This document shows positions 317-5,898 of a DNA stretch of 5,898 nucleotides, in pieces. Source of the stretch: a virus. Taxonomy: Duplodnaviria > Heunggongvirae > Uroviricota > Caudoviricetes. The stretch lies in the IMG/VR virus record IMGVR_UViG_2695420487_000019, one strand, 5' to 3'. The notes below the pieces were generated by a model. That model was given only the letters and a program-made list of their open reading frames with translations. It had not been told where the DNA came from and made no database searches. Position numbers and translations under genes: made by a program. Numbering within the stretch: the first letter of the stretch is position 1; every line of letters begins with the position of its first letter.

Positions 317-907
317 ATGTCTCGAATTTTTGCTTACTGTCGGATATCAACGCTGGATCAGACCACCGAAAATCAACGCCGGGAAATCGAAAGTGCAGGT
401 TTTAAAATCAAACCTCAGCAAATAATCGAAGAACACATTAGCGGCTCAGCAGCAACCAGTGAGCGTCCTGGTTTTAACCGGTTGCTTGCTCGCCTGAAAT
501 GTGGTGATCAATTGATTGTGACAAAACTGGATCGCCTTGGTTGTAATGCAATGGATATCAGGAAAACAGTGGAACAACTGACCGAAACAGGTATCAGAGT
601 GCATTGCTTAGCATTGGGGGGCATTGACCTGACCAGTCCAACAGGAAAAATGATGATGCACGTAATTTCAGCAGTCGCTGAATTTGAACGAGACCTTTTA
701 CTTGAACGCACTCATTCCGGGATAGTAAGAGCCCGCGGCGCAGGGAAACGTTTTGGTCGACCACCTGTGTTAAATGAAGAACAGAAACAGGTGGTATTCG
801 AACGAATTAAGTCAGGTGTAAGTATAAGTGCCATTGCCCGGGAATTCAAAACCTCGCGGCAAACCATTTTAAGAGCCAAAGCAAAACTTCAGACACCTGA
901 CATATAA
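317..907 (+). CDS. pinQ: Serine recombinase, DNA invertase of the Pin/Gin/Cin/Hin family (196 aa)
   Basis: Intact ORF, ATG at 317 and TAA at 905-907. N-terminus [15 protein letters not shown] has the resolvase/invertase catalytic motif (Y-x-R-I-S-T-x-x-Q, presumptive nucleophile Ser11). C-terminus [21 protein letters not shown] is a helix-turn-helix. The protein matches PinQ/PinR of the K-12 Qin/Rac prophages from memory. Symbol chosen from locus context (noh-cos, ynfO, ydfO, gnsB neighbours); pinR-type cannot be excluded without a search. Confidence 0.9.
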
Positions 908-1004: not shown

Positions 1005-1580
1005 CTACGGCAGTGCTGGCCATTCAATATCCGGTGCAGTTGATGTATCAACACGGTTCAGCAACACCCGATACTTTTTCCAGGCTTCCAGCAACAAGGT
1101 TTCTTCCTCCGTTGCGATCTCCAGATCCACAGCATCCTGAAGCGGCGCTATATGCTCACTGGCTATCTGCATCAGGCTGTTTTTTGTTTCTTCCGCCTCC
1201 CGGATCCGGAACAGTTTTTCTGCTTCCGTATCCTTCACCCAGGCTGTGCCGTTCCACTTCTGATATTCCCCTCCCGGCGATAACCAGGTAACATTTTCCG
1301 GTAACGGACCGAGTTCAGAAATAAATAACGCGTCGCCGGAAGCCACGTCATAAACCGTTTTACCCCGATGATCTTCAACGAGATGCCACGATGCCTCATC
1401 ACTGTTGAAAACAGCCACGAAGCCTGCCGGAATATCTGGCGGTGCAATATCGGTACTGTTTGCTGGCAGACCTGTATGAGGCGGAATATATGCGTCACCT
1501 TCACCAATAAATTCATTAGTTCCGGCCAGCAGATTATAAATTTTTATGGTCCGTGGTTGTTCACTCATTCTGAATGCCAT
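1005..1580 (-). CDS. tfaQ: Tail fibre assembly protein (Tfa, 191 aa)
   Basis: Intact minus-strand ORF beginning [24 protein letters not shown], the N-terminus I recall for lambdoid Tfa chaperones (TfaQ/TfaR/TfaE). Its start codon overlaps the stop of the upstream fibre-tip ORF in a TAATG arrangement at 1578-1582, indicating translational coupling. Convergent with pin. Confidence 0.85.
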
Positions 1581-1888
1581 TACGCAAGCCTCACAATATA
1601 GTTAAATGCGATGTTTTTGACGGTGTTTTCCGCGTTACCAGCAGCGTTAACGGTGATGGTATGTCCATGTGAACCAATCGCAACGGAGTGCGTATGAGCA
1701 CCAATACCGACAGTATGTGCGTGTGCACCTGCGCTTGCAGCAGTACCCGATACAGAGTGCGTATGAGCGCCTGCAGAAGAAGTGTTAACACTGTATTTAG
1801 AATAATCAGGTGATCCACTTCCCGGAGCACCACTGGAACCACCTGAAACAAATGTCATCGAATGGGTATGTGCACCGGCTGTCCCCAT
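1580..1888 (-). pseudogene. stfQ: Side tail fibre C-terminal tip fragment with repeated His-x-His motifs, joined out of frame to the upstream J-like fragment
   Basis: Translation carries five HxH units (GAHTHS three times, GAHAHT once, SHGHT once), as in the iron-coordinating distal tip of T4 gp37-type fibres. The frame is open upstream to 1984 but that stretch overlaps real J-frame coding sequence, so the Met at 1888 is not a natural start. The position between J and tfa matches lambda stf. The symbol follows locus context and is uncertain. Confidence 0.65.
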
Positions 1889-3135
1889 GCATTTACCGCC
1901 CGGACTGTCAGCCTGTAATTTCCCAGCGCCAGCTGCGTGAAGCGATATGTGGTTTCCGTCGTCCGGGCCGTGCTGACCAACCGCTCACTGCCGTCGTCCG
2001 CTGCCACGGTCAGGCGAAGCATAAAGCTCACCCCCTTCACCACCTTCGGCGTGTCCCAGCGCGCCAGCACCTGGTATTCCCCGCTGTCTGCGGTGACTTC
2101 TGCGGTCAGGTGCTGAACTGCTGGCGGCGTGACACCATTCACCGTGCCGCTCTGGTCACCGTCAAAGTGCGCCCCGTTATCCACGATGGCTTCTTTCTCC
2201 GGTACATGCTGCACGGCAGTGATGGCATACGTACCGTCATCGTTCTCACGGATACTCACACAGCGGAACAGGCGCTGACGCAGCGTCGGCAGCTTCAGCC
2301 CCCACACGCTGTACTCGGCAACGCCGTCAGGAACCCGGCTCACTTTCACCTTCACGCCGTCGGTGACGGACTGGACCTCCACGCTCACCGGATTACCCTG
2401 CCCGTCAACCAGGCTTATCAGCGTGGTGCCGGAGGATGGCAGCGTGATTTCACGGTCGAGCGTCAGTGTCCGCGTCTGGCTGTTCACCGCCAGCACGCGC
2501 CCGCCGATGCTGATCCCCGCATAGTCATCATCACAGATTTCAATGACATCACCTGGTACATGGCGAAGCCCTTCGGCACCCACGCTGAAGTCCACGGTCT
2601 GCGTTTCCAGCAGTTCCGTTTTAATCAGCCACAGCCCGGCTCGGTGCGCCTGCCCCCGCCTGGTACAGCCAAAGGCATCCATCTTCGTGACGTTACGACC
2701 GTAACGGGCAATGGCCTGCGTGTCCTCCACAAGCTCTGTCGCCGTCTCCCAGCCGTTATCCGGGTCAATCCAGTTCACCTCAACGGCATTATGGCGGTCC
2801 TTCAGGGCGCTGAAGCTGTAGCGGAACGGCGCGCCATCATCCGGCATCACCACATTACTGCGGTTATAGGTCCACACCTTATCTGATGGTCGGTCCTGCA
2901 CGAACGTCAGCGTCTGCCCGTTCCATACCGGCATACAGCGCATCGCCGAGCAGAAATCACTGAGAACATCCCACGCCTTACGCTGTGTGGTCAGCCAGGC
3001 ATTACAGGTGATGCGCGGCTCCGTGCCGCCAAAACCGTCCGGCACCGACTGGTCGCAACACTGGCCGATGACATACAGCGCCCATTTATCCACATCTGCC
3101 GCACCAAGACGTTTACCCATGCCGTAGCGCGGGTG
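1855..3135 (-). pseudogene. Internal fragment of a lambda J-like tail tip / host specificity gene (about 425 codons), missing its 5' end, with the 3' receptor-binding part replaced out of frame by the fibre tip
   Basis: The ORF 1855..3222 translation from about residue 30 (RYGMGKRLGAADVDKWALY...) to its end (...[23 protein letters not shown]) matches the central region and fibronectin-III-like repeats of lambda gpJ as I recall it. The first 29 codons of the listed ORF lie on Nu1 DNA in another frame and are spurious. Terminates 7 codons after AWGQ, at the junction with the fibre tip. Confidence 0.8.
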
Positions 3136-3370
3136 GCTGGAGATCTGTCTCGCTGGCCTGCCGCAGTTCTTCAACTTCCCGGCGCAGCTTTTCGTTCTCA
3201 ATTTCAGCATCCCTTTCGGCATACCATTTTATGACGGCGGCAGAATCATAAAGCACCTCATTACCCTTGCCACCGCCTCGCAGAACGGGCATTCCCTGTT
3301 CCTGCCAGTTCTGAATGGTACGGATACTCGCACCGAAAATGTCAGCCAGCTGCTTTTTGTTGACTTCCAT
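3113..3370 (-). pseudogene. nohA: 5' fragment of a lambda Nu1-type terminase small subunit gene (N-terminal winged-helix cosB-binding domain, about 78 codons, then 6 foreign codons and a stop)
   Basis: Translation MEVNKKQLADIFGASIRTIQNWQEQGMPVLRGGGKGNEVLYDSAAVIKWYAERDAEIENEKLRREVEELRQASETDLQP matches lambda gpNu1 residues 1 to about 78 almost exactly (from memory), then diverges to PALRHG-stop where the J fragment begins. It sits the same distance downstream of cosN as in lambda. Confidence 0.85.
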
Positions 3371-3595
3371 TGTTCATTCCACGGACAAAAACAGAGAAAG
3401 GAAACGACAAAGGCCAAAAAGCCCGCTTTCAGCACCTGTCGTTTCCTTTCTTTTCAGGGGGTATTTTAAATAAAAACATTAAGTTACGACGAAGAAGAAC
3501 GGAAACACCTTAAACCGGAAAATTTTCATAAATAGCGAAAACCCGCGAGGTCGCCGCCCCGTAACCTGTCGGATCACCGGAAAGGACCCGTAAAG
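3371..3595 (-). other. Lambda-type cohesive end site (cosQ-cosN-cosB), apparently intact
   Basis: The reverse complement of 3371-3559 reads GGGCGGCGACCTCGCGGGTTTTCGCTATTTATGAAAATTTTCCGGTTTAAGGTGTTTCCGTTCTTCTTCGTCGTAACTT...GAAAGGAAACGACAGGTGCTGAAAGCGGGC...TGTCGTTTCCTTTCTCTGTTTTTGTCCGTGGAATGAACA, near-identical to my memory of the lambda left end with its R3, I1, R2 and R1 elements. The reverse complement of 3560-3590 (GGGTCCTTTCCGGTGATCCGACAGGTTACG) matches the lambda right end and cosQ region. Confidence 0.85.
3548..3559 (-). other. cosN 12-nt cohesive-end core (GGGCGGCGACCT on the minus strand)
   Basis: An exact match to the lambda 12-nt 5' overhang sequence is seen directly at these coordinates. 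Confidence 0.85.
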
Positions 3596-3758
3596 TGATA
3601 ATGATTATCATCTACATATCACAACGTGCGTGGAGGCCATCAAACCACGTCAAATAATCAATTATGACGCAGGTATCGTATTAATTGATCTGCATCAACT
3701 TAACGTAAAAACAACTTCAGACAATACAAATCAGCGACACTGAATACGGGGCAACCTC

Positions 3759-3992
3759 ATGTCTACGAAGAACAGAACCCGCAGAACAACAACCCGCAAC
3801 ATCCGCTTTCCTAACCAAATGATTGAACAAATTAACATCGCTCTTGAGCAAAAAGGGTCCGGGAATTTCTCAGCCTGGGTCATTGAAGCCTGCCGCCGGA
3901 GACTGTGCTCAGAAAAAAGAGTTTCTTCTGAAGCAAACAAAGAAAAGAGTGACATTACTGAATTGCTCAGAAAACAGGTCAGACCAGATTGA
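3759..3992 (+). CDS. ynfO: Small ribbon-helix-helix-like DNA-binding protein (77 aa), YnfO/YlcI-type prophage moron protein
   Basis: ORF with ATG at 3759 and TGA at 3990-3992; a G-rich stretch (GGGG) lies about 6 nt upstream of the ATG. The pattern basic arm, beta strand (NIRFP), helix (NQMIEQINIALEQKG), turn (SG), helix (NFSAWVIEACRRRL) parallels Arc/MetJ-type RHH repressors. Size and position (plus strand just past noh and cos) match ynfO of Qin as I recall it. Confidence 0.7.
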   Translation: MSTKNRTRRTTTRNIRFPNQMIEQINIALEQKGSGNFSAWVIEACRRRLCSEKRVSSEANKEKSDITELLRKQVRPD

Positions 3993-4049
3993 AGCAATTT
4001 AGATAATCGTGCAGACTACGCCCCCTCATATCACATGGAAGGTTTATCT

Positions 4050-4460
4050 ATGGATCAGGTAGTCATTTTTAAACAAATATTTGATAAAGTTCGAAACGAT
4101 TTAAACTATCAATGGTTTTATTCTGAGCTAAAACATCACAATGTCTCACATTACATTTACTATTTAGCCACAGAGAATGTTCATATTGTATTAAAAAATG
4201 ATAATACAGTGTTATTAAAGGGCCTAAAAAACATTGTGTCTGTCAAATTTTCAAAGGATAGGCATCTTATAGAAACGACCTCTAATAAGCTGAAATCCAG
4301 AGAGATCACATTTCAGGAATACAGAAGAAACCTTGCTAAAGCAGGAGTTTTTCGGTGGGTTACAAATATCCACGAACAAAAAAGATATTACTATACCTTT
4401 GATAATTCATTACTATTTACTGAAAGCATCCAGAAAACTACACAGATCTTACCACGCTAA
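4050..4460 (+). CDS. ydfO: Uncharacterised prophage protein, YdfO/YbcV-like (DUF1398-type), about 136 aa; the alternative upstream ATG at 4035 would give 141 aa
   Basis: ORF ending TAA at 4458-4460. The ATG at 4050 has a good Shine-Dalgarno sequence (GGAAGG, 4037-4042) 7 nt upstream; the ATG at 4035 has none. Markedly AT-rich (about 28% GC in a hand-counted 60-nt line, 4081-4140). Assignment to the YdfO family rests on size, position and partial sequence memory only. Confidence 0.65.
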
Positions 4461-4469
4461 ACCATAACG

Positions 4470-4496
4470 TCCGGCTTCTCTCACTCCTGAGCCGGA
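4470..4496 (+). terminator. Possible hairpin downstream of the ydfO-like gene (7-bp stem TCCGGCT / AGCCGGA, 13-nt loop)
   Basis: Inverted repeat seen directly; followed by a T-containing stretch (TTGGTTTAAT) but not a clean U-run, so a weak terminator candidate. Confidence 0.3.
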
Positions 4497-4554
4497 CTGC
4501 ATTGGTTTAATAAAAACCATCAACAATTGTGATTTAGATATTCGGAACCATTCA

Positions 4555-4586
4555 AATATAACAAAACCCCGTAAAAACGAGGTTTA
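4555..4586 (-). terminator. Candidate rho-independent terminator downstream of the gnsB-like gene
   Basis: On the minus strand, AAACCTCGT-TTTT-ACGGGGTTT forms a 9-bp stem with one mismatch and a 4-nt loop, followed by TTTTGTTATATTT. It lies 25-55 nt past the gnsB stop (4612-4614). Confidence 0.4.
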
Positions 4587-4611
4587 TGGATAAATTTTAT
4601 TATTGAATACA

Positions 4612-4770
4612 TCAGATTAAATTAATCTTGACATCATAGCTTTCAAGACCCGTCATTTTTTCCCGTGCGGTAAACTGAATACTGGTAACTTCTTTCCCGG
4701 TCTTTTTCTTAAGTTCAATAATTTTTTTTGTTATATATTCAGAAATATCTGCTTCTGCTTTTGTTTTTAA
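4612..4770 (-). pseudogene. gnsB: GnsA/GnsB-family small protein gene, 5'-truncated by IS5 at about codon 5; the remaining 52 codons are fused in frame to 30 codons read from the IS5 end
   Basis: The C-terminal 52 residues LKTKAEADISEYITKKIIELKKKTGKEVTSIQFTAREKMTGLESYDVKINLI align without gaps to residues 6-57 of the 57-aa GnsA/GnsB proteins as I recall them (...TGKEVSEIRFTAREKMTGLESYDVKIKIM). The listed ORF 4612..4860 continues upstream across the IS5 terminus, where the codons L-F-A-P-S are encoded by the IS5 inverted repeat. Confidence 0.75.

Positions 4771-5898
<1,128 letters not shown>

Follow-up and report, generated by a model that had tools for sequence, protein, structure and literature searches.

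The window, a 5,898-nucleotide stretch of DNA, contains a junction at which the terminase small subunit gene nu1 of a lambdoid prophage is joined directly to the interior of the tail-tip gene J. We interpret this as an ordinary deletion scar in the E. coli prophage Qin, in which an illegitimate nu1-J join probably left the two gene fragments as inert remnants, and we give this reading a probability of roughly 93%. The deletion event is a reconstruction from sequence comparison, and a genome representing its direct ancestor was not found. The features of the window and the lambda segments kept by other alleles of the locus are collected in Table 1.

Table 1. Features of the window, and lambda segments retained by other alleles at the same locus (window positions unless lambda is stated)
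Feature	Position	Strand	Basis or remark
tfaQ, intact tail fibre assembly gene	1005-1580	-	PGAP on identical sequence; lambda tfa homology
stf' fragment, side tail fibre C-terminal remnant (GAHTHS repeats)	1580-1877	-	Pfam Phage_fiber repeat
Second deletion junction, J (lambda 17605) to side tail fibre C-terminal part	1878		J homology stops at 1878
455-aa chimeric ORF	1855-3222	-	29 codons nu1 DNA, 419 codons J, 7 codons stf DNA; both ends out of frame
J' fragment, tail-tip gene J codons 281/282-700 of 1132 (lambda nt 16347-17605)	1878-3136	-	blastn; BLASTP
Truncated nu1 ORF tail, 6 codons (PALRHG) from J DNA in the wrong frame	3113-3133	-	Translation; TAA at 3113-3115
Deletion junction	3134-3136		3 nt common to nu1 parent (lambda 425-427) and J parent (lambda 16347-16349)
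nu1' fragment, terminase small subunit codons 1-79	3134-3370	-	78/79 identical to lambda gpNu1
cosB and nu1 leader region (lambda nt 13-190)	3371-3547	-	Within 98.1% alignment, window 3134-3559 to lambda 427-1
cosN 12-nt cohesive-end sequence GGGCGGCGACCT (lambda nt 1-12)	3548-3559	-	Exact match; 3559 = lambda nt 1
Lambda right-end homologue (lambda nt 48502-48141)	3560-3921	-	blastn vs lambda 47500-48502: 98.1% over 362 nt
ynfO	3759-3992	+	Overlaps distal part of lambda right-end homologue
1332KP allele	lambda 1-956 / 13434-17605		Same locus
NCTC9040 allele	lambda 1-697 / 2177-3464 / 16136-17605		Same locus
FDAARGOS_1337 allele	lambda 1-699 / 16135-17605		Same locus
300709 allele	four islands		Same locus
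F829 allele	lambda 1-701 / 16710-17605		Same locus

The window is 99.9% identical to NZ_CP144928 over its full length and lies in the ydfJ/ydfK neighbourhood, with the genes in Qin order: from the ydfK side, pinQ, tfaQ, stf', J', nu1', cos, ynfO, ydfO and gnsB::IS5. The order that defines Qin continues beyond gnsB with ynfN, cspI, rzpQ, rrrQ and further genes. Outside the deleted block the window is collinear with the region of MG1655 annotated as 'cryptic prophage Qin'. The full-length match, the Qin context and the collinearity with K-12 bear out the guess of the first-pass annotation that this was a Qin-like prophage, and identify the window as part of Qin, a cryptic lambdoid E. coli prophage. 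The late operon runs on the minus strand in the order cos, nu1, morphogenesis genes, J, stf and tfa, with tfaQ forming the downstream edge of the decayed operon, and the segment homologous to lambda's right end lies against the left end, which is the prophage arrangement. The sole IS element in the window is an IS5-like ISKpn26 that begins at 4772 inside gnsB.

Alignment to lambda, which the first-pass annotation had proposed as a check on the breakpoint and on microhomology, places the junction to the base. On the minus strand, lambda nucleotides 1-427 (cos plus nu1 codons 1-79) abut lambda nucleotides 16347-17605 (J codons 281/282-700). DNA homology on the Nu1 side ends at window position 3134, with 100% identity to phage PhiR70_1 and 98.1% to lambda nt 1-427, and homology on the J side extends from 3136 to 1878, with 98.4% identity to mEp460 and 92.8% to lambda nt 16347-17605. 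The alignment ends overlap by three nucleotides (TGG on the plus strand, CCA on the minus strand). The junction was also placed by comparing three sequences, the window and the nu1 and J regions of strain 1332KP, and neither this comparison nor the lambda alignment left filler or unassigned bases between the two homologies. Additional coding sequence between the nu1 and J homologies, or a tail gene other than J as the partner, had been named as findings that would overturn the interpretation; there is no gap, and the segment is gpJ.

In lambda coordinates the loss amounts to 15,922 nt, where the initial estimate had been roughly 15 kb. The genes A, W, B, C, nu3, D, E, FI, FII, Z, U, V, G, T, H, M, L, K and I are lost, as are 309 nt from the 3' end of nu1 and 842 nt from the start of J. 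The initial description had nu1 codon ~78 fused to J, J homology starting within a few codons in a different frame, and the 5' half of J removed along with the head and tail block. The fusion, the change of frame and the loss of the block all stand; however, the break falls after codon 79, J begins at once, within the shared nucleotides, and only the first quarter of J (281/1132 codons) is missing here. The J frame is shifted relative to that of nu1 and, because the join is out of frame, nu1 stops six codons on, at the predicted stop codon, and the J fragment is left without a start of its own.

The junction has the make-up expected of an illegitimate one, consisting of two lambda-collinear segments that overlap by 3 nt and are also collinear with sister Qin alleles. 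An IS end at the junction, as an IS-mediated adjacent deletion requires, was not found: there is no IS element at 3134-3136 and none within 1.6 kb of it, the distance to the element in gnsB, which is itself missing from 24 of the 25 junction-bearing complete genomes described below. When the parental sequences around 427 and 16350 were inspected, by eye only, no att core or gix-like site was seen. We suggest that illegitimate recombination, either homology-independent or guided by very short homology, joined nu1 after codon 79 to J codon 281/282, perhaps by replication slippage or end joining at the 3-nt microhomology. Since the chance of a microhomology of at least 3 nt is ~0.05 (equal base frequencies), the observed one is barely above chance and therefore says little on mechanism. 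Short-homology illegitimate recombination in E. coli is reportedly responsible for the lacI deletions studied by Albertini et al. in 1982, and is said by Ikeda's group to underlie the formation of lambda bio transducing phages. The nu1/J junction resembles these systems in being clean, with few shared nucleotides, no filler and no mobile element, although 3 nt lies at the low end of their range.

The junction is not confined to the window. The identical 200-bp nu1/J junction sequence was recovered as one piece, at 100% identity, from 25 of 5,426 complete E. coli genomes, which come from varied hosts and were produced by different laboratories on different platforms, and it is also present in six IMG/VR contigs. 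Lambdoid prophages with near-identical nu1 and J sequences occur several times per E. coli genome, a median of two places per genome matching the junction probe, and might in principle have been misassembled, or have recombined with one another instead of undergoing a deletion within Qin. We regard both possibilities as exceedingly unlikely. The recurrence of one junction in 25 independently sequenced complete genomes speaks against an artefact, the sequence on either side belongs to Qin and keeps its usual order and orientation from ydfK to gnsB, and sister alleles hold the missing DNA next to sequence that is 100% identical up to the break.

What remains of the two genes further supports the view that deletion within Qin produced inert fragments. 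The 85-aa ORF at 3113-3370 on the minus strand comprises gpNu1 residues 1-79 followed by the six frame-shifted residues and the stop, and matches Pfam Phage_Nu1 (PF07471; E=1.4e-48) over profile positions 1-81 of 164. The whole winged-helix cosB-binding domain (residues 1-68) is kept, with matches to PDB entries 1j9i (residues 1-68) and 6hn7, whereas the self-assembly and C-terminal gpA-binding regions (~residues 100-181) are missing, leaving less than a full gpNu1. The self-assembly and gpA-binding regions of gpNu1 are needed for a working terminase. The nu1' product thus appears to be a fragment and not a functional terminase small subunit; PGAP labels it 'terminase small subunit, incomplete, missing C-terminus'.

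The J' fragment lacks the N-terminal 280 residues and the receptor-binding C-terminal part (701-1132), and retains the central domains Phage-tail_3 (PF13550, E=1.1e-42) and Ig_J (PF24421, E=5e-35). It is labelled by PGAP as 'host specificity protein J, incomplete, missing N-terminus and C-terminus', so that RefSeq/PGAP independently lists as partial pseudogenes both of the partners that the first-pass annotation had called pseudogenes. Residues 30-448 of the 455-aa ORF are 95% identical to gpJ residues 282-700 by BLASTP. The earlier remark that this ORF is partly artefact, its first 29 codons being nu1 DNA in the wrong frame, is correct, and extends to its other end, where it runs into stf DNA; annotators should be warned that the 455-aa ORF is no gene. 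At this second junction, tail-fibre homology covers 1593-1878, and the J C-terminus (38% of J), lom and most of stf have been removed, the remnant of the last being labelled by PGAP as 'tail fiber protein, missing N-terminus'. The 200-bp sequence of the J/stf junction is present in 92 genomes.

The intact DNA-binding domain, the intact cos adjoining the Nu1 fragment and the persistence of the allele in 25 genomes from varied hosts would fit a domesticated role, either for the Nu1 fragment, as a regulator or DNA-binding decoy that might, for instance, hinder packaging of incoming lambdoid phages, or for a useful J-derived 455-aa protein. We consider such a role very improbable, given that the Nu1 fragment ends in frame-shifted codons, that the 455-aa ORF opens with out-of-frame nu1 codons and offers no obvious reason why it would be translated, that many different truncations are tolerated in sister strains and that PGAP calls both pieces pseudogenes. 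Within the clade there is also no sequence divergence from which selection could be read. In our interpretation nu1' and J' are probably without function.

Comparison with Qin prophages of other strains, also proposed in the first-pass annotation, identified same-locus alleles that keep more DNA and are 100% identical to the window on both sides of the break; these more complete alleles point to loss, not gain. The 300709 allele contains at least four junctions and that of NCTC9040 two, one of them common to both strains. Flanking sequences were compared over 30,338 shared positions in four junction-bearing strains and four with other alleles, and since the flanks of these sister strains are only 7-20 SNPs apart, the losses took place in situ and recently. 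Decay at the Qin locus is thus both recent and multi-event. When a precursor was sought by flank phylogeny, the 47 variable sites were nearly all singletons and gave a star-like tree without resolution.

The first-pass annotation had taken a single deletion to be implied. The deletion itself holds; its singleness does not follow, since at least six other alleles exist at the same locus, some of them derived from two to four deletions. Whether the window allele arose by one large deletion or by a last small deletion over an older junction is a matter of about even odds. Exactly one deletion of ~15.9 kb, from a Qin with a complete head and tail block, has somewhat under an even chance in our estimation. 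It requires the fewest events for the window allele taken alone, the star-like flank phylogeny ties the junction-bearing strains to no particular partly deleted allele, and the segments kept by sister alleles together imply a recent ancestor with most or all of lambda 1-17605. However, multi-step decay is demonstrated at the same locus in 300709 and NCTC9040, the FDAARGOS_1337 allele is only 480 bp from the window allele, around the junction, and the SCZE5 junction CCAGCCGCGCT matches the J partner CCACCCGCGCT at 10/11 positions, which would make it a much better substrate than the 3 nt offered by intact nu1.

Stepwise erosion, in which a later and smaller deletion erased an earlier junction (699/16135, or the nu1-internal 428/675), comes very close to an even chance. 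Candidate intermediates exist: a 480-bp loss from the FDAARGOS_1337 allele would yield the window junction, and the 10/11 match would similarly favour a step from an SCZE5-type junction. In addition, the primary left end points of the clade cluster at nu1 nt 697-701, which the window allele has lost. On the other hand, 699/16135 is present at the Qin locus in one genome only, which shares no derived SNP with the junction-bearing strains, and the SCZE5/ECJXMCRH7 allele lies on a different, K-12-like Qin haplotype (99.58% vs 99.77% identity) without any J, which rules it out as the direct precursor. We also rejected import of a DLP12-type junction as the origin of the FDAARGOS_1337 allele: its J side is 100% Qin-type, there is no second copy in the genome, and the DLP12 copy of 699/16135 differs from it 22 nt from the junction.

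A separate observation concerns the positions of the breaks. In Qin and DLP12 prophages the same deletion end points recur, apparently far beyond chance. The reused sites include nu1 nt 697-702 (GATA^CCGGGG), nu1 nt 427/428, lambda 8064/8065 and three of the four CCGCGCT sites. Left end points at nu1 nt 697-702 account for at least nine different junctions on at least five cos-nu1 haplotypes, position 8064/8065 is the left end in one allele and the right end in another, and the 699/16135 junction is carried by two J haplotypes. The four CCGCGCT sites are those within lambda 1-23 kb; the three serve as right end points and include the J end of the window junction, and the left end points of the window (427) and of the SCZE5 allele are no more than 1 nt apart. 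Both window end points coincide with those of other, independent alleles, which a purely random-break model does not predict and which counts against a plain illegitimate reading.

It is conceivable, though we think it unlikely, that the junction came from a sequence-specific process, either an enzyme or a replication pause, acting repeatedly at a few sites in lambdoid late operons. Neither a candidate enzyme nor a recognisable recombinase site was identified, no hairpin or unusual DNA structure was found at the nu1 nt 697 hot spot (z = -0.02), the motifs were spotted only after the data had been viewed, and serial deletions inheriting one end point could explain part of the reuse. A scan of IMG/VR with the 16-mer CTGGATGAACTGATAA gave 60 matches, 52 by chance and eight at nu1 junctions. 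Microhomology strength was rejected as the cause of partner choice, the observed partners not being the top ones (26 to 1,416 other positions match equally well or better). The same applies to CCNGG restriction-type, Dcm/Vsr, DnaA-box and invertase gix sites at the hot spots, judged by eye, for which the right ends misfit or the break is misplaced within the motif. Literature searches found no description of base-level end-point reuse or of nu1 hot spots. We likewise hold it improbable that lambdoid late operons erode non-randomly, with a few sites reused across independent Qin and DLP12 lineages; if they do, specific cutting or stalling, or selection that removes terminase gene A while sparing cos and nu1, would be implied, and the window junction would be secondary, made by a deletion that took the primary hot spot away.

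Interpreted as a deletion scar, the nu1/J junction has close counterparts. In K-12 MG1655, the nohA (b1548)/stfQ (b1547) junction of Qin occupies the same locus, with the same tfaQ-pinQ right flank and a cos-nu1 left flank that is 99.3% identical over window 3134-4771, and is a scar of the same kind, with a nu1 homologue placed directly against part of a tail-fibre gene. It differs in that the nu1 side reaches lambda nt 719, leaving nohA nearly full length, whereas the window is cut at nt 427; moreover, its partner is the side tail fibre gene and J is wholly lost, whereas the window retains 1.26 kb of J and carries the J(17605)/stf scar that K-12 lacks. The 699/16135 junction, present in 64 complete genomes, including the DLP12 prophages of E. 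coli B (REL606), E. coli C and ATCC 8739 and the Qin of FDAARGOS_1337, similarly fuses nu1 to an internal point of J, with all head and most tail genes gone. Its end points (nu1 nt 699, J nt 16135) and microhomology (TACC) are different, and it retains a further 272 nt of nu1 and 212 nt of J, lying wholly inside the deletion of the window.

We found no description in the literature of this particular nu1/J junction. Both gene fragments are already public as pseudogenes in RefSeq/PGAP, and to that extent the finding is known and ordinary. Prophage decay by deletion has reportedly been documented at the level of gene content by Bobay et al. in PNAS in 2014. Defective ('grounded') prophages have also been described at the gene-content level, with Qin very variable in size among 189 strains (Ramisetty & Sudhakari, 2019; PMC6379469). 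The window resembles such decayed prophages, in which morphogenesis genes are lost while lysis genes, cos, morons, toxin-antitoxin genes and regulators are kept.

Taken alone, the junction matters little, being a base-level record of one more route by which Qin has lost its head and tail genes, although its presence in 25 complete genomes makes it of some use as a lineage marker. The reuse of end points is a question apart from the junction itself and could merit a separate study of how prophages are dismantled. The window allele is one data point in a rapidly decaying locus, where decay appears unusually fast and repeated, with at least seven alleles on flanks that are ~0.05% different.

Chromosomes of E. 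coli match all 5,898 nt of the window, the top match being NZ_CP144928 (99.9% full-length), where the corresponding region sits between ydfJ/ydfK and cspI. The gene order there is pinQ, tfaQ, a partial tail fibre gene, a partial J, a partial terminase small subunit gene, ynfO, ydfO, gnsB interrupted by the IS5-like element ISKpn26, and ynfN. The 'cryptic prophage Qin' annotation of MG1655 shows the identical gene order without the J piece and without the IS, and K-12 Qin aligns with the window at 97.9-99.3% identity, window 1769-3133 excepted. Since gene order and alignment agree, the first-pass annotation was right in its guess of a Qin-like prophage.

Within this prophage, whose late genes run along the minus strand, a segment from cosN through the 5′ part of nu1 (98.1% identical to lambda, 100% to phage PhiR70_1) is fused to the middle of J (92.8% identical to lambda, 98.4% to mEp460). 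The coordinates assigned to this junction from sequence were all correct, with small corrections: the break lies after nu1 codon 79 rather than ~78, the two homologies have zero gap between them, not a few codons, and the first quarter of J is lost, not its 5′ half. The junction was resolved by comparing the window with both nu1 and J as they stand uninterrupted in a sister strain: the nu1 parent reads GATCTCCAGCCA followed by GGGACT, the J parent CTGACCCA followed by CCCGCGCT, and the window GATCTCCAGCCA followed by CCCGCGCT. The junction holds neither filler DNA nor a mobile element, and the stretch absent between the two remnants, counted on lambda, is 15,922 nt. Of 5,426 complete genomes, 25 contain the 200-nt junction as one unbroken match of 100% identity (matches H67-H91), and six IMG/VR contigs carry the identical sequence; the junction is real and not an artefact. 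PGAP labels the pieces 'terminase small subunit, incomplete, missing C-terminus' and 'host specificity protein J, incomplete, missing N-terminus and C-terminus'. The feature is an ordinary, previously annotated deletion scar of a well-known cryptic prophage. The clean join, at which the two alignments share 3 nt, fits illegitimate recombination through either slippage or end joining; because at least 3 shared nt are expected by chance in ~5% of random joins, this microhomology is weak evidence.

Features of the window and deletion alleles of sister strains at the Qin locus (a/b, lambda nt a joined to lambda nt b; genome counts among 5,426 complete genomes)
Feature or allele	Window position	Lambda nt	Remarks
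pinQ	317-907		intact, 196 aa; L012 (compared locus) 22329-22919
stf′	1580-1877		C-terminal part
J/stf junction	1878	17605	J codon 700
J′	3136-1878	16347-17605	minus strand
cos-nu1′ homology	3559-3134	1-427	minus strand; from cosN
cos	3548-3921		complete, prophage configuration
cosN	3548-3559		GGGCGGCGACCT; minus strand
Lambda right-end homologue	3560-3921		362 nt, 98% identical
ynfO start	3759		within lambda right-end homology
gnsB	4612-4771		interrupted
82-aa ORF	4612-4860		gnsB::IS fusion artefact
ISKpn26	4772-5898		IS5-like
ISKpn26 transposase ORF	4918-5898		cut by window end
1332KP		1-956; 13434-17605	L, K, I and J 5′ part present; 956/13434 in 6 genomes
NCTC9040		1-697; 2177-3464; 16136-17605	697/2177 in 5 genomes; 3464/16136 in 1 (plus one near-variant)
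300709		1-697; 2177-3501; 5294-5626; 9780-10687; 15668-17605	
FDAARGOS_1337		1-699; 16135-17605	699/16135 in 64 genomes, mostly in DLP12
F829		1-701; 16710-17605	
FORC 064 and many others		1-703; 17302-17605	703/17302 in 89 genomes

The interpretation as a deletion junction is supported, while the 'single deletion' of the first-pass annotation is unproven. Its suggested comparison with other Qin-like prophages proved productive, revealing fuller alleles at the same locus on Qin backbones that match the window at 99.9-100% identity either side of the break; the K-12 allele differs (lambda 1-719 joined to stf). Four junction-bearing strains and four strains with other alleles share 30,338 positions, with 47 variable sites and a star-like tree; two SNPs are common to three of the four junction-bearing strains, and none among these positions ties the junction strains to one particular other allele. 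Across the 40-kb regions L011-L018, strains representing at least five different deletion alleles differ by only 7-20 SNPs per 30 kb of shared flank. In this clade, the Qin late region has decayed structurally much faster than point substitutions have accumulated. Given so few SNPs and a star-like tree, several different deletions arose over a very short period; the ancestor that gave rise to them must still have carried most of lambda 1-17605, and in at least two lineages several have demonstrably piled up. The NCTC9040 allele corresponds to that of FDAARGOS_1337 with an additional island of 1,288 nt (L002 4347-5634; 3′ end of A, W and 5′ part of B) that has TA on both flanks; the outer end points lie within 2 nt of those of FDAARGOS_1337. 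Either the island was lost precisely or the same pair of sites was used more than once.

The window's deletion wholly includes that of FDAARGOS_1337, the difference being 480 bp. A second possible route is suggested by SCZE5 (L161 3095-3115) and ECJXMCRH7 (L169), which carry an in-frame nu1-internal deletion, 428/675, whose left end is within 1 nt of that of the window junction. Its junction, CCAGCCGCGCT, matches the window's J partner, CCACCCGCGCT, at 10 of 11 positions (window 3126-3136), so that a junction of this type might have served as substrate for the fusion; however, the allele sits on a K-12-like Qin haplotype without J, and for this reason it was rejected as the precursor itself. 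Overall, we regard a single deletion of 15.9 kb and a smaller, last one as about equally likely.

Deletion end points are reused in Qin and DLP12 prophages. A left end at nu1 nt 697-702 (CTGATA^CCGGGG), at the 3′ end of nu1 and immediately ahead of the GTG start of gene A, occurs in at least nine different junctions, with right partners at A 2177, A 1129, Z 8065, J 16135, J 16710, J 17302, J 17967 and two tail-fibre sites, spread over at least five cos-nu1 haplotypes of both prophages (loci L002, L006, L007, L009, L010, L054, L060, L061, L123 and L160); the window's deletion took out this site. The 699/16135 junction (microhomology TACC) is found in the Qin of FDAARGOS_1337 (L006 3868-3874) and the DLP12 of REL606 (L007 6368-6374) with two J haplotypes that differ already 22 nt from the junction, and it therefore probably arose twice, by independent recurrence rather than transfer. 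Three of the four plus-strand CCGCGCT sites in lambda 1-23 kb serve as the right ends of deletions (678 in SCZE5, 16351 in the window, 20877 in K-12 Qin and IMG/VR contig L112); the heptamer is common to the sequence right of 428/675 in SCZE5 and the window's J partner. Position 8064/8065 serves as a left end in SCZE5 and as the right end of a deletion in IMG/VR contig L060. Neither microhomology rank nor DNA structure explains this reuse, which is a lead and not a result, the motifs having been noticed after the fact in a sample that is not an unbiased census.

The J/stf junction is a second scar; lost there are the receptor-binding part of J, lom and the bulk of stf. Its 200-nt junction occurs in 92 complete genomes and is common to every sister allele except that of K-12. 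IMG/VR contigs with the identical nu1::J junction differ in their tfa/stf haplotype, of which there are two (L165-L167, lambda 21847-22535 at 95.1%; L162-L163, lambda 21824-22535 at 94.3%), which hints that the tail-fibre end recombined after the nu1::J deletion arose. Elsewhere in the locus, the gnsB::ISKpn26 insertion is confined among complete genomes to NZ_CP144928, gnsB being intact in the other 24 genomes with the junction. pinQ has an internal stop in PK6 and a frameshift in 1332KP, and several relatives carry different IS insertions nearby: IS1 in ydfJ, ISKox3 adjoining ynfT, IS3 adjoining gnsB and IS1414 between pinQ and tfaQ.

In the 85-aa ORF, gpNu1 residues 1-79 (78/79 identical) run into PALRHG before a stop at 3113-3115; the ORF spans the entire solved DNA-binding domain (PDB 1j9i, residues 1-68), covers only half of its Pfam model, and lacks the assembly and gpA-binding parts. 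Residues 29-448 of the 455-aa ORF are 95% identical to gpJ residues 281-700, its first 29 codons being out-of-frame nu1 DNA and its last seven out-of-frame tail-fibre DNA; this remnant has no start, N-terminus or receptor-binding end. Nothing suggests a function for either remnant, and sister strains tolerate many other truncations. The intact cos and the 5′ part of nu1 continue to provide homology to infecting lambdoid phages for exchange; experiments have demonstrated exchange of this kind in DLP12 (lysis-cos-nu1/A region) and in Qin and Rac (stf-tfa regions) (PMC3945230).
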